Source: an uncultured Candidatus Sumerlaeota bacterium (GTDB lineage: Bacteria; Sumerlaeota; Sumerlaeia; MWCT01; JAUWMI01). From it: a DNA stretch of 64,000 nt. The stretch spans positions 888 through 64,887 of the forward strand of contig CAYVXD010000002.1 in assembly GCA_964454265.1 (NCBI GenBank), written 5' to 3'. Shown here one piece after another: positions 36,583 through 50,067 of the stretch. Below the pieces are notes generated by a model that searched no databases, was not told where the DNA came from, and saw only the letters and a list, made by a program, of their open reading frames with translations. Positions within the stretch are counted from its first letter, which is position 1. Each line of letters begins with the position of its first letter. The position numbers and the translations under genes were made by a program.

Positions 36583-36685
36583 AGAGCCTATCCCAAAAAT
36601 TCTGTCTTCCACAATGTCATTCTGAGAATCTCGCCGTCTTGAGATGCTTCACTCCGTTCAGCATGACAATTTTGGGATAGCCTCT
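36583..36685. repeat. MITE-like nested inverted-repeat element
   Basis: Outer arms are agagcctatcccaaaaatt and aattttgggatagcctct. Inner arms are gtcattctgag and ttcagcatgac. The track ORF 36588..36791 is a translation of this repeat. Confidence 0.7.
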
Positions 36686-36809
36686 TAGACCTGCTATTTG
36701 ACCCAGCTAGTCTGCGCCAGTATCGAAAATAGGGTACAGTCCACGCGCTCGTTCCTCGCTTGGGACAGTCCCCAATTTTTATCTCCCTCATTTCAAATAT
36801 GCCGAAGCA

Positions 36810-38288
<1,479 letters not shown>

Positions 38289-45972: not shown

Positions 45973-46125
45973 TAGCGGTATTCCTCCCACGCAGCCTGCC
46001 GGCACGGAACTATACGTTTACCACAAGTTGAAATGTTAGCAAGCCAAAGACTCAACGCAAGGGAAAAGTTGCAGACGCACATTGAAAGAATTGTTGTAAC
46101 CATAGCTGACTAAGAGCCCGCTATT

Positions 46126-46342
46126 GCTCTGTTGAAAACCTTAGACCATACAAAAGAGGATATTGAAAATGATGGGTTCGCCACCTTGACGTAGCACGGG
46201 CGTCTCGCCCGTGTGGATTGACAACTATGGCACAAAGATCATCCGCCTAGGCGGATGCCACGTTATCAGAGCCACATTGACACTCCAAGTAGAATGGCGG
46301 TTCGATTTATTTCTGGCAGGATGTAAGGCTTTTCAACAGAGC
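46126..46342. repeat. MITE-like element: 17-18-nt terminal inverted repeats enclosing two GC hairpins
   Basis: The terminal repeats are gctctgttgaaaacctt (46126..46142) and aaggcttttcaacagagc (46325..46342). The internal hairpins are CACGGGCG-tct-CGCCCGTG (46195..46213) and CATCCGCCTAGGCGGATG (46240..46257). Confidence 0.5.
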
Positions 46343-46468
46343 ATGCGTCTGTAAAAAAAGGATTGATTTTACGGATGCACAATGACATAAAATTATAACG
46401 TAATGCTGTCGCGGAAGGGCCTGATTCGTCTCAGCCTTTTCCATCCTTCCCTTGAGTTGACCAGTTGT

Positions 46469-46545
46469 CGGGGCGTAGCGCAGTTGGCTAGCGCGCAGCG
46501 TTCGGGACGCTGAGGTCGGGGGTTCAAGTCCCCCCGCCCCGACCA
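46469..46545 (+). tRNA. tRNA-Pro (anticodon CGG), CCA encoded
   Basis: A manual cloverleaf folds cleanly. Acceptor CGGGGCG/CGCCCCG, D stem GCGC/GCGC, anticodon stem CAGCG/CGCTG with loop TTCGGGA, T arm GGGGG-TTCAAGT-CCCCC, discriminator A plus CCA. Total 77 nt. Confidence 0.95.
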
Positions 46546-46668
46546 GATGCAACTTTGCGAATTTATGGGGTAATATGGCAGAAGATATTTATAAATGCTT
46601 GTGAGAAAGCAAAAATACAAAAAACAGTAACAGTCCATGCCCTCAGGCATAGTTTTGCAACCCACCTT

Positions 46669-46693
46669 CACGCCGGAGGCGCATTTTCAACTT
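46669..46693. repeat. Left copy of a 25-nt perfect inverted repeat inside the recombinase remnant
   Basis: cacgccggaggcgcattttcaactt is the exact reverse complement of 46741..46765. Confidence 0.95.
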
Positions 46694-46740
46694 GAGTGCG
46701 GAACTGACCTGAGGTACATTCAAGAGATTTCAGGGCATAA

Positions 46741-46765
46741 AAGTTGAAAATGCGCCTCCGGCGTG
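46741..46765. repeat. Right copy of the 25-nt perfect inverted repeat
   Basis: Reads aagttgaaaatgcgcctccggcgtg. Confidence 0.95.
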
Positions 46766-46892
46766 CAGTAAGACTACCGAAATCTATACGCAAGTGAGCA
46801 CTAAAGATATTGGAAGAATCAAAAGTCCACTGGATAGTCTGAATATAATCAAGGGGCGTAATAAGTGACAAAATTTGTCAATGCGAAGGGGA

Positions 46893-46992
46893 CCTCTGGT
46901 TCAGCCAGAGGGAGGTATATCCGAACATAGTTCGTCTATACCTCCAACTTAGGCGGATATCCGAACTCGGTTCGCATGTGAACGAGTTAGAT
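46893..46992 (+). promoter_or_regulatory. Structured attI-like/operator-like region upstream of the ATPase gene
   Basis: It opens with the hairpins CCTCTGG-ttcag-CCAGAGG and GGAGGTATA...TATACCTCC. Two direct copies of ATATCCGAAC-N3-GTTCG follow, at 46917 and 46957 (40 nt apart). A perfect GTTRRRY core (GTTAGAT, 46986..46992) closes the region. Confidence 0.45.
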
Positions 46993-47106
46993 GCAATTGG
47001 ACAGGAAATAACACTGAAAAGGAAAATGCTGCGTGATGAGGAAAAACACAAAATTGGTAACAAGGTGTGGGAGAGTGTATCAAAAAGATGAACTTTCAAG
47101 GGGGAT

Positions 47107-48408
47107 GTGATGAGAGAAGGCATTGTTGATAGGGTAAAGAGAGAAAGAGAAACCTATTTCAAGGACAGATTTGGGTTAAAATCAAATCCCTTTATATTAT
47201 CTCCTTACGGTGATATCAAGAGACTTGCAAGAGTATTTGTGGATAGAAAAGAAGAAATTGAAAGGGCAGTTGTTACATGTTTAGAAGAGCCTCGGAATAT
47301 CCTTGTCTATGGCATGTTTGGAATTGGAAAATCTGCTTTCATTCTCAAATTACTTTATGAATTTGCTAAGGCAACATATATTCGTTCCCTCACATCGTAT
47401 GGCTATATAGGAGAGGCTACTCCTAAAGGCTTTGTTGCCCAAGCATTGTTGGGTTTGGCTACTTCTCTGACTGGAAATGGAAAAGCAGAGCAATACAAAA
47501 AGACGCTACTGGGTACCAGTAGAGTTAAAGAAATAGAAAAAGAAATAAGCGGAGAGATCGAAGGTGGAGTATTAGTGATGAAGGGGAAAGGTGGTGGAAA
47601 ACTTGCATTTACATCTGCAGAAATAATAGAGACAAATCTAGACCAGTTAAAACTACAAGCCATGTTTAAAGAACTCGTAAAAATATCAAAGCACAAAGCT
47701 GACCGGATAATAATTGCGATTGATGAAATGGATAAGCGAAGCGCTGCGAAAGTCCAGGAAATTATTGCGGAATGTAGAGGTTTACTGCACGAGTCCGTTT
47801 CGTTTATACTAACTACCTCCTTAAGAGCCATGATCTACAGAGCAGATGAACTTGGCAAGAAATTAGATGATATTTATTCCACTTTTTATGGTGCATTTGA
47901 TGAGAAAATCGAAATAAAGCCCTTCTCTTTAGCTGACTTATCTACATTTGAAGAATTGGTTGAGAAATCTTTAGGATCAGTAAGAATTTCCGGATTCGAA
48001 AAGGGAATAGTTCCATTCACTAACGACGGAATTGAATTCATAGCTAAACGGAGCCACGGAGTTCCCCGAGTGTTCAACCGAATATGTAGAGATGTACTTG
48101 ATACTGCTTGGCGTTTAAAGCTTGAACAGATCAATTCGGCGGCTGTTAAGTATTGCTTCAGGGTAAAAGGGAAAGAAATTTTAGAAAGTTTACCTAGAAA
48201 ACAACGAAAACTTATCGATTTAATAAATGAGCGAGGGGGAACACTAGAAAGAGTAGATGATAAGCTTGTTACAAAATATAAAGCAAAAAATAAACAGGCA
48301 GTTTACAGGCAACTTGGTTTTTTGGTACAGAACGATAAGATAATAAAAATAGAAACAGAAGAAGGCACAAATTATGAAGTGATACCCGAAATCAAGGAAG
48401 TAACATAG
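47107..48408 (+). CDS. AAA+ ATPase (Orc1/Cdc6- or ExeA-like P-loop) with C-terminal winged-helix-like domain
   Basis: 433-aa ORF with an N-terminal FGLKSNPF...FVDRKEEIE. Walker A is GMFGIGKS, Walker B is RIIIAIDEMD, and there is a sensor-like SFILTTS. The C-terminal ~80 aa (QRKLIDLINERGGTLERVDD...YRQLGFLVQNDKIIK) look wHTH-like. The probable start is the ATG at 47110. Confidence 0.8.
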   Translation: MMREGIVDRVKRERETYFKDRFGLKSNPFILSPYGDIKRLARVFVDRKEEIERAVVTCLEEPRNILVYGMFGIGKSAFILKLLYEFAKATYIRSLTSYGYIGEATPKGFVAQALLGLATSLTGNGKAEQYKKTLLGTSRVKEIEKEISGEIEGGVLVMKGKGGGKLAFTSAEIIETNLDQLKLQAMFKELVKISKHKADRIIIAIDEMDKRSAAKVQEIIAECRGLLHESVSFILTTSLRAMIYRADELGKKLDDIYSTFYGAFDEKIEIKPFSLADLSTFEELVEKSLGSVRISGFEKGIVPFTNDGIEFIAKRSHGVPRVFNRICRDVLDTAWRLKLEQINSAAVKYCFRVKGKEILESLPRKQRKLIDLINERGGTLERVDDKLVTKYKAKNKQAVYRQLGFLVQNDKIIKIETEEGTNYEVIPEIKEVT

Positions 48409-48486
48409 AGGGGGGGAGTGTATCATAAATAGAGATAGGCAAAAAGCAAGCAGCAAAAATTTTGCAAGATTTGGACGACCAACTGC

Positions 48487-48560
48487 ATCTAACACGGGCT
48501 TTGCGGCTTACTGCATTCTCTCAAATGCTTCGCACTTCGTAAAGCCCAAGAACGTTATAT
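48487..48560 (+). other. attC-like element A (74 nt)
   Basis: R''-like ATCTAAC, stem GGGCTTTGCG/CGTAAAGCCC, and R'-like GTTATAT. It is homologous in layout and partly in sequence to element B. Confidence 0.45.
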
Positions 48561-48576
48561 GAAATTGCTATGATAC

Positions 48577-49533
48577 ATGGGGGAAATTATGTTAGCTTTG
48601 TTTCTTGGAGCCGGCTTTTCTAAGTGGGCTGCAAATTTACCGGTGGCCAGTCAGTTCTTTGATTTTAACGTTGAACCTTCGGGGCCACGTGAGCTTAAAA
48701 AATTGGAGATTGTAAGGTCGTTAAAACATAATTGGGACAAATCACACCCGTATGGGCTTAGCGAACAATTCATTGTAGATGCATTGAAATTTGAGGAGAA
48801 AAAGAAAGAGGCGGTTCTTTGGTATATTGTTCGTAGGCTTTCGGAACCATTTATTTGGAAAGAATATCATGCACAGAAATGGCGCAGACATGTTTTGATG
48901 ATTGATGAAAATCGCAAATACGATAGACCAGGAGTCATTCAAGCACAAAAGTTTCTTAAGAAATATTCGACCCCATCTTTAGCTGGTATCATAACCACGA
49001 ATTATGATATCCTTGTTGAATATGCGCTTGGGACAAAGGGATTCAACTACGGTATCCCTAATCAAGCGCTTACAGGTCGAGGGCCGTATCCCGTTTCTCA
49101 GTGGAAAAATCCCGTTATACTAAAAGGCAATATCCCGATAGCGAAAATTCATGGTAGTATTTCATGGGATGAACATAATCAATATACAGATGGGAGGCAT
49201 GGTTTGACAGGTCATGCTTTGATTGTGGCACCAACGCCCGAGAAAGAATCATCAGAATCTTTGAGATTTGTTTGGAACTTGGCTAAAGAAATTCTCAGAA
49301 AAGCCACACGAATCATTGTTTTTGGGTTTGCATTTAACCCTTACGACACTTCCGTTCTGAATTTTCTAAAATCTGAAGGTAAGAACTTGGAGTCTGTTCT
49401 CTTGGTGAATATAGGATCCAACACTGAGGCGGCACGTATTCTGTGGCCACGCGCTAAAATTGTATCGACAATGCCGCCACCAGATGGGAATAAAGAGATG
49501 CAAAATTGGCAGAAGAAATGGCTAGGAATATGA
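48577..49533 (+). CDS. Stand-alone SIR2-like (SIR2_2/ThsA-type) domain protein, putative NADase effector
   Basis: 318-aa ORF with LFLGAGFS at the N-terminus, ITTNYD (catalytic Asn) and KIHGSISW (catalytic His). The probable start is the ATG at 48589 (GGGGGA lies 4 nt upstream). Confidence 0.8.
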   Translation: MGEIMLALFLGAGFSKWAANLPVASQFFDFNVEPSGPRELKKLEIVRSLKHNWDKSHPYGLSEQFIVDALKFEEKKKEAVLWYIVRRLSEPFIWKEYHAQKWRRHVLMIDENRKYDRPGVIQAQKFLKKYSTPSLAGIITTNYDILVEYALGTKGFNYGIPNQALTGRGPYPVSQWKNPVILKGNIPIAKIHGSISWDEHNQYTDGRHGLTGHALIVAPTPEKESSESLRFVWNLAKEILRKATRIIVFGFAFNPYDTSVLNFLKSEGKNLESVLLVNIGSNTEAARILWPRAKIVSTMPPPDGNKEMQNWQKKWLGI

Positions 49534-49543
49534 GCCCAATTTC

Positions 49544-49619
49544 ATCTAACAGCATGTTTACGGTTCGCTACGCTCACCCAAATGCTTTCGGCACTTCGCA
49601 AACACGCAGGACGTTAACC
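49544..49619 (+). other. attC-like element B (76 nt)
   Basis: R''-like ATCTAAC, stem GCATGTTTACG/CGCAAACACGC with 2 mismatches, and R'-like GTTAACC. The central caaatgctt..gcacttcg is shared with element A. Confidence 0.45.
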
Positions 49620-49818
49620 AAATTTGATATTGCCATTTTATGGGTTCGCAAAGCGTTTTAAGTGCGAGCATTTCCTGCCTTAAAATCCAGTAGCCGGGTA
49701 TGCCTTCCTGGTTTCATTAAGGGCCTTCTGCACCTGTTAATTGTGTTGAATTGCTGCGCCTATAATGACTATGGCTTGAAAGGTGATCCTTCCCCTTCAC
49801 TTTGTTCAGGGTCAGGAT

Positions 49819-49850
49819 GAGGGGTCGGGGGTAGAACTCCCCGACCCCTC
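49819..49850. repeat. GC-rich hairpin
   Basis: Reads GAGGGGTCGGGG-gtagaact-CCCCGACCCCTC (12-bp stem). Confidence 0.85.
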
Positions 49851-50067
49851 AATTATTTGCGTCAAGTGGCCAGTTAATCATTTGACATTTTCATATAGAT
49901 TGCCATGATGGTTGCGATTATCTGAATTGTTTACGATTCACGTTTTTGCAATAGAGCATTGGAAATCCCTCAAGCCAATCGCGTAAAGCCGCTTTTTCAG
50001 CGTGCGTTTATTAGATCGAGCAGGGATAGCCATAGGCTGAGAGTATCCTTGGTTTTAATGTGAATCC

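Follow-up and report, generated by a model that had tools for sequence, protein, structure and literature searches.

A 22-nt repeat inserted twice, in opposite orientations, into a tyrosine recombinase remnant behaves like a very small mobile insertion element

The question raised by this locus is how two perfect copies of one short sequence came to lie in opposite orientations within the coding sequence of a recombinase. In the window, the whole stretch of 64 kb of DNA that was analysed, CACGCCGGAGGCGCATTTTCAACTT is found at 46669-46693 and its exact reverse complement at 46741-46765, which confirms an earlier reading made without database searches (hereafter the sequence-only reading) that had described perfect 25-nt inverted copies separated by 47 nt. 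A repeat search extended these arms to 28 nt at 96% (46666-46693 and 46741-46768, 47 nt apart), and the pair is the sole inverted repeat in the 64 kb with a 12-nt seed and arms at most 200 nt apart, besides two short palindromes. With up to three mismatches allowed, the window yields just two matches to the 22-nt core and 100 shuffles yield none, and no further credible copies were found in the window at up to five edits. The three coding pieces around the copies occupy frames 1, 2 and 0, which fits two insertions, each of a length equal to 1 mod 3. The features of the locus are given below.

46469..46545, + strand: tRNA-Pro(CGG), at the edge of a decayed low-GC islet
46579..46868, + strand: C-terminal remnant of an Xer/integron-integrase-like tyrosine recombinase, about 80 codons (tblastn, NCBIfam, PDB)
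46669..46690, + strand: left 22-nt copy, CACGCCGGAGGCGCATTTTCAA (22-nt gap in four homologous DNAs; Leu-Leu invariant in 23 homologs)
46691..46743, + strand: native recombinase sequence between the copies, 53 nt in native orientation, coding for (L), 16 residues and (S) (identity to contig L004, protein alignment)
46744..46765, - strand: right 22-nt copy in the opposite orientation, reading TTGAAAATGCGCCTCCGGCGTG on the + strand (protein and DNA alignments)

Recombinase homology begins at about 46579 and ends with a stop codon at 46866-46868, the two insertions splitting the remnant over three frames. Profile matches were obtained to the integron integrase (1.7e-25) and XerD (8.6e-22) models of NCBIfam, and a homolog of the remnant (P0004) matched XerC-like, XerA and IntI4 structures in the PDB. 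The sequence-only reading had placed the copies in the catalytic region of a recombinase, but the host is a C-terminal remnant and not a recombinase gene. No N-terminal recombinase part was detected by tblastn throughout the window; the N-terminal two thirds are lacking, the window contains neither the first catalytic Arg nor the Lys nor the SAM-like domain, and the only catalytic residues kept are HxxR, GH and Y. The remnant does not comprise both the complete catalytic domain and the N-terminal core-binding domain that define a tyrosine recombinase. These losses indicate that the host gene is dead, a remnant and not a gene. The suggestion that the inverted copies form a switch inactivating the recombinase is not supported, given the missing two thirds with the first catalytic Arg and the Lys; it is moot, since only a remnant is left and there is nothing to switch.

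An integrase split at a tRNA, as in SSV-type integration, was considered and rejected, as the window contains neither an N-terminal half nor a repeat of the tRNA 3' end, and the recombinase homology starts only about 35 nt past the 3' end of the tRNA-Pro. At the locus, Rfam returned the tRNA alone, plus chance-level matches of miRNA precursors to the long hairpin, and none of the promoter or terminator signals exceeded chance. Contig L008, which is orthologous, stops some 15 nt short of the tRNA, and the locus of the homolog P0124 showed no synteny with that of the window.

The surroundings of the remnant offer some observations in their own right. The remnant opens a low-GC islet downstream of the tRNA-Pro (46546-50000, GC of 0.41-0.42 vs. 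about 0.51) that harbors a KAP/STAND-like P-loop ATPase (47107-48408) and a SIR2-like protein (48577-49533; PADLOC SIR2, 2.8e-12), a pair that may represent a two-gene defence module; no att repeat was found at the right end of the islet. Past the recombinase stop codon, about 120 nt (46869-46989) are conserved with contigs L004 and L005, while the genes further downstream differ, and this segment, which holds a hairpin formed by GGAGGTATATCCGAAC and GTTCGTCTATACCTCC (46911-46945) and a repeat ATATCCGAAC..GTTCG at 46917 and 46957, is a candidate recombination site or element end for this recombinase family. Moreover, the 120 best homologs of the recombinase fragment (P0001-P0120) are only 69-161 aa long, catalytic-domain-only or shorter, the recombinase of L004 has an internal deletion, and that of L006 has a deletion and a stop codon splitting the gene, so that this recombinase family seems to occur mostly as decayed copies.

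The exact size and ends of the insertions could be defined from homologs of the host. Using the repaired recombinase fragment as query, 2045 homologs were found, of which 23 were aligned at the protein level. The THLLE motif is present in all 23, with both Leu residues invariant, and three residues (mostly KSS, the second Ser occurring in at least 90%) separate GH from KTTEIY in 23/23. At the DNA level, MAFFT alignment of L004, L005, L006 and L007 produced two clean gaps of exactly 22 nt opposite both copies. Since L007 is a copy of L006, these four DNAs amount to three independent contexts. The left copy splits the Leu codons CTT^CTT of THLLE, with a boundary ambiguous by 1 nt (46670-46691, reading ACGCC...CAAC, is equally possible), and the right copy interrupts the Ser-Ser codons of GHKSSKTT. 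The sequences before insertion would thus read CAC CTT^CTT GAG on the left and AAA AG^C AGT AAG on the right. By these alignments each net insertion is 22 nt (CACGCCGGAGGCGCATTTTCAA) without target duplication, and the CTT/CTT and AGY/AGT repeats at the borders represent the native Leu-Leu and Ser-Ser codons, one base of which is supplied by the element.

Accordingly, the 25-mer region consists of insertions and not of coding sequence, as the sequence-only reading had proposed, since the homologs lack 22 nt at each site. Excision of both 25-mers does restore a continuous frame as had been noted, but excision of 22 nt does so too and it alone matches the homologs. The proposed composition of 22 nt plus a 3-nt target-site duplication cannot be maintained, as the repeated codons are native and the 25-nt reading deletes one residue per site. 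For the same reason we rejected a 25-nt element ending in CTT, with which both recombinase sites would lose a conserved residue; besides, the 22-mer is followed by CCC in contig L001 and by CTG in a nested copy (see below). The 53 nt lying between the copies have an identity to L004 of 0.78, compared with 0.89 and 0.85 in the two flanks, and can be regarded as ordinary native sequence, roughly as divergent from the homologs as the flanks. Because this spacer is native sequence in native orientation, each 22-mer must have entered separately, as a singlet.

Exact 22-mer and 20-mer scans were carried out on 596 Gb of genomes (one per species) and on JGI metagenomes. The genome scan returned a single contig, L001, from a Candidatus Sumerlaeota MAG, and the JGI scan returned L002 and L003, giving three contigs in all public scans; viral contigs yielded no match to the 22-mer, and diverged copies were absent at up to five edits from the window and 11 loci. 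The search for further copies that the sequence-only reading had called for was therefore successful in L001, L002 and L003, and its suggestion of footprints or ends of a tiny mobile element proved half right, since a tiny repeat with copies elsewhere is present, but as whole units instead of footprints or ends.

L001 and L003 are orthologous loci (the argD-argF spacer), 93.6% identical, and both carry the 22-mer within a hairpin loop, in the arrangement GTGG-CACGGGCG-(T + 22-mer + CC)-CGCCCGTG, followed by a second hairpin, CATCCGCCTAGGCGGATG-CTAC. The window holds a related structure with an empty loop.

46191..46213, + strand: unoccupied GTAG-tagged hairpin CACGGGCG-TCT-CGCCCGTG, a paralog of the L001/L003 hairpin and not an orthologous empty site

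This hairpin is part of a two-hairpin module at 46191-46261 that corresponds to the L001/L003 module. These modules of opposed GTRG-tagged hairpins (window 46191-46261, L001 1489-1558, also in L003) resemble a REP doublet, the window version being composed of GTAG + CACGGGCG-TCT-CGCCCGTG and CATCCGCCTAGGCGGATG + CCAC. Between its hairpins it has 20 extra nt compared with L001/L003 (TGGATTGACAACTATGGCAC, 46214-46233), which are possibly another tiny insertion; no second copy of TGGATTGACAACTATGGCAC was found in the window.

In L002, three copies of the 22-mer lie within 79 nt. Two are nested, with 13+3+6 nt of a host copy enclosing a 22-nt guest in the TCC loop of the host (44 nt altogether), and the third is located 13 nt from the nested pair. 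Overall, six copies are known in four sequence contexts, all with identical boundaries, and five of the six are identical over 23 nt. The 22-mer inserts, as these arrangements show, into single-stranded hairpin loops and into itself. With two copies in 64 kb, both at the recombinase remnant, and one contig only in the representative Sumerlaeota MAG, its copy number appears very low.

The organism from which the window derives is related to the genomes carrying the other copies. One window gene is 81% nucleotide-identical to L001, L002 has a 73-nt repeat in common with the window (92% identity), and the best named matches of AtpA are from Sumerlaeota/BRC1 at 74-76%, with Nitrospirae and Zixibacteria close behind. 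The shared repeat (GAAAAATAGGGTACAGTCCACGCGCTCGTTCCTCGCTTGGGACAG..., 36726-36798 in the window and 1575-1645 in L002) is non-coding, lies about 230 nt from the 22-mer cluster of L002 and is another small dispersed repeat family in these genomes. Other small elements were noticed in the window. A MITE-like unit of 219 nt with perfect 14-bp terminal inverted repeats, TGCTCTGTTGAAAA and TTTTCAACAGAGCA, occupies 46072-46349 (core 46125-46343), and about 275 nt holding it are absent from the orthologous intergenic region of the related genome L008, which identifies it as an insertion that took place in the lineage of the window. At 36616-36668, the spacer that follows the ATP synthase beta gene (- strand, 36810-38210) holds an imperfect palindrome, GTCATTCTGAGAATCTCGCC...CACTCCGTTCAGCATGAC, which resembles a palindromic repeat widespread in uncultured bacteria.

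Regarding its structure, the 22-mer consists of a GC hairpin of 4-5 bp with a 3-nt loop, followed by a 9-nt A/T-rich tail. The stem, CGCC/GGCG, has 4 bp and reaches 5-6 pairs through G-U pairing on the TTGAAAATG... strand, and the MFE values of -4.8 and -6.5 kcal/mol are no better than those of shuffles (z = -1.3 and -1.9). Read on the CACGCC...TCAA strand, the 5' flank ends in T or G and the 3' flank is CTT in 4/6 copies (CTTTT in three), with CCC or CTG in the two loop insertions; the binomial probability of four CTT flanks in six is about 9e-7 for independent sites. At the right window copy, the CTTTT forms part of the conserved native coding sequence and has therefore to be attributed to the target instead of the element. 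The 22-mer lies 3' of AAG (4/6 copies) or AAAAG (3/6) when read on the TTGAAAATG... strand. It appears to be oriented by whichever strand offers the preferred target, and this allows two copies to come to lie in inverted orientation. In the ACGCC...CAAC notation, the left junction is C^A and the right one C^T, or C^C in L001. As CT[TG]CTT occurs 97 times in the window, the target motif alone cannot explain both copies at this locus. The chance of two random insertions within 75 nt in 64 kb is about 0.002, and the process itself seems to favour sites near a resident copy, given that the copies of L002 cluster likewise. Folding revealed no convincing hairpins at the recombinase insertion sites, and hairpin-loop targeting was discarded as a general rule, since the two recombinase sites and two L002 sites (L002b and the host copy) fold unconvincingly. 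A CRISPR repeat, a dif site or an att site was also rejected on sequence grounds, as the copies are inverted, with spacings of 13 to 53 nt and arms without symmetry.

Taken together, these results argue that the 22-mer is probably a discrete tiny mobile insertion element. It behaves like a very small, non-autonomous REP/SDR-like insertion repeat, one of the smallest mobile DNA elements known, each copy of which would have entered the decaying recombinase remnant as a single unit, without target duplication. We infer tentatively, as a possible rather than an established step, that an HUH/Y1 transposase (RAYT or IS200/IS605 type) acts in trans and moves the element in single-stranded form. If an enzyme bound to a resident copy were to cut nearby sites, the clustering of copies within 100 nt would be explained. 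It has been demonstrated that single-stranded DNA is cut at C^T by the Escherichia coli RAYT within a range of more than 400 nt around the REP to which the enzyme is bound (PMC3333891), and that the Marinomonas enzyme cuts at CT and CA (PMC8266576), while IS200/IS605 transposases act on one strand of single-stranded DNA and recognise their cut sites through a tetranucleotide 5' of the hairpin foot (PMC3333891, PMC8266576). There are also precedents for the arrangements observed here, including REPs within small GC palindromes, intragenic REPs, sometimes two per ORF, and head-head or tail-tail REP dimers with spacers of 20-100 bp (PMC3733652). Against REP-type enzymology, the C^A cut at the left end differs from that of the E. 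coli enzyme, and no transposase, RAYT or reverse transcriptase was found among the 38 window ORFs scanned; the missing GTAG or CGTC tag, the marginal hairpin and the apparently low copy number of the element also count against it.

Other explanations have to be weighed against a mobile insertion element. One of them holds that a single 22-mer arrived and that the second was made locally by intramolecular template switching at CTT/AAG microhomology during replication, the nascent strand folding back, copying the first 22-mer and returning to leave an inverted neighbour. Such a process would give inverted copies close to each other, as in the window and in L002, the inverted repeat indeed runs 3 nt (CTT/AAG) past the 22-mer on one side and 2/3 nt on the other, and the nested arrangement of L002 is also readable as a 17-bp fold-back hairpin. 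However, the second copy has the same two boundaries, which the homologs define independently, and nothing would make a polymerase that slips on 1-3 nt of microhomology halt at them. CTT also flanks L002 copies that have no partner arranged for switching, and the lone copy of L001/L003 needs a long-range mechanism anyway, so that we consider template switching quite unlikely. Only slightly better placed, and unlikely as well, is insertion through an RNA or cDNA intermediate, in which the element is first transcribed into a small structured RNA; such a route has reportedly been proposed for the cyanobacterial SDRs. The size of 22 nt, the small hairpin and the self-nesting match the reported description of SDRs, and the G-U pairs on the TTGAAAATG... 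strand are a hint of RNA. Nonetheless, the copies of the 22-mer are identical and show no covariation, no reverse transcriptase was found nearby among the 38 window ORFs scanned, and the flank rule and the loop targeting fit enzymes acting on single-stranded DNA at least equally well.

The sequence-only reading listed an assembly artefact among its possibilities, and an origin of the copies in a chimeric join, an MDA fold-back or an adapter-like oligonucleotide is very improbable. It is true that some chimeras are known to leave perfect inverted repeats separated by a short spacer and that no independent copy of the window locus was seen in public collections, but the inserted sequence is foreign to the locus and not derived from it by inversion, each insertion measures exactly 22 nt with the flanking codons intact, and the same 22-mer occurs with seamless junctions in three contigs from other assemblies and samples (L001, L002 and L003), including orthologous loci differing by 6.4% around it, which speaks against an assembly artefact. 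The 22-mer is also not known to match any common sequencing adapter. Equally hard to credit is a functional device, be it an invertible segment, a hairpin switch controlling the recombinase, or two gaps passed by translational bypass. The two copies do form a 97-nt hairpin whose 25-bp stem is strong on folding (-37.9 kcal/mol as DNA, z = -6.8). In phage T4 gene 60, the take-off and landing codons of translational bypass match and the gap contains a hairpin, and here identical codons flank the inserts (CTT...CTT and AGT...AGT), a TGA comes right after the second take-off codon, and a hairpin lies in the gap. Yet the repeated codons are accounted for as native, the remnant has about 80 codons and nothing upstream supplies its N-terminal domain and the two missing catalytic residues, the 53-nt segment has kept its native orientation, and promoter and terminator signals do not rise above chance; moreover, that segment is far shorter than any invertible segment known to us. 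The 97-nt hairpin is most likely a by-product and not a device.

Returning to the mobile insertion element, very small repeats such as REPs and SDRs are common in bacterial genomes, and how they spread is poorly understood. The exact ends of such repeats are rarely known, as they usually lie in non-coding DNA without an empty site, and the main value of the present locus is that the empty site can be read to the single base, in two places, from a conserved reading frame. Loop-inserted and self-nested copies with exact ends provide a precisely defined substrate for testing single-stranded-DNA transposases, and tiny insertion elements are extended to a poorly studied phylum. Besides, insertions of this type mimic frameshifts, target duplications and chimeric assemblies and can mislead annotation. 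A further-reaching reading, to which we give a distinctly lower probability, is that the 22-mer is an active member of an ultra-small mobile class outside cyanobacteria that moves as one 22-nt unit, lands preferentially beside or inside resident copies and so builds hairpin doublets de novo with host DNA between them; if true, it would capture the birth of a REPIN- or MITE-like element and explain the 'long-loop' variants of REP hairpins.

Comparison with known systems brings the 22-mer close to the repeats mobilised by RAYTs (REP, BIME and REPIN), which are units of 20-40 nt with a small GC hairpin that insert without target duplication (PMC3116915, PMC3333891, PMC3733652, PMC8266576). Inverted pairs with 20-100 bp spacers that fold into a larger hairpin, as well as intragenic and palindrome-inserted copies, are shared with them, and cleavage at C^T (and C^A) fits the junctions of the 22-mer. 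In contrast, its stem has 4-5 bp, compared with 5-13 bp in REPs, and half of the unit is an unpaired A/T-rich tail. Neither end of the 22-mer carries the GTAG/CGTC tag of REPs, the four bases 5' of its stem being derived from the flank and variable (TTCA, TGCA, GTCA); the hairpins at 46191-46261 near the remnant carry GTAG/GTGG. REPs are present in tens to thousands of mostly extragenic copies per genome, whereas the 22-mer count is apparently far lower, and a RAYT gene is often flanked by REPs, while none was found for the 22-mer among the 38 window ORFs. A REPIN moves as a doublet with its own spacer, but here the spacer is native, in-frame recombinase sequence and it was a singlet that moved.

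The IS200/IS605 family and its derived PATEs likewise show strand-specific insertion beside a short target, single-stranded DNA targets and no duplication. In IS200/IS605 a hairpin is followed by about 9-10 nt to the cut, comparable to the 22-mer, which ends in TCAA, the cleavage tetranucleotide of the right end of IS608. PATEs insert without duplication 3' of a fixed tetra- or pentanucleotide; the 22-mer likewise shows no duplication, and its flank, AAG in 4/6 copies and AAAAG in 3/6, agrees in part. These elements differ in requiring two subterminal hairpins and at least about 100 nt, whereas the 22-mer has one tiny hairpin, and no tnpA was seen among the window ORFs. Rickettsia palindromic elements are also selfish palindromic repeats inside protein-coding genes (PMC3733652), but they measure 100-150 nt and insert in frame into genes that remain functional, while the 22-mer causes a frameshift, in a gene that had probably lost its function beforehand. 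MITEs are similarly small, non-coding and non-autonomous, although they have 70-300 nt, terminal inverted repeats and a target-site duplication, and the arms observed here are separate whole elements around host coding DNA, without duplication.

The SDRs of cyanobacteria remain the closest in behaviour. Work by Elhai and colleagues in 2008 reportedly described SDR1-8 of Nostocaceae as repeats of 21-27 nt with a small hairpin and self-nesting, and is said to have found insertion at specific short targets and to have proposed an RNA-mediated route; we know of no enzyme for SDRs. That work and an SDR5 insertion in HIP1 are mentioned in a study of HIP1-enriched genomes (PMC5861425), and no SDR-like repeats were reported in HIP1-enriched cyanobacteria outside Nostocaceae (PMC5861425). 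The 22-mer falls within the 21-27 nt range, is precisely inserted and nests in itself, with one nested copy of 44 nt, but its host is Sumerlaeota-like and not of the Nostocaceae, its sequence is unrelated, and neither that lineage nor compensatory changes are seen. Overall, the 22-mer matches the behavioural definition of SDRs, in another phylum, while it lacks the tag of REPs and, unlike a REPIN, moved as a singlet. We file it within a known kind, the very small non-autonomous insertion repeats.
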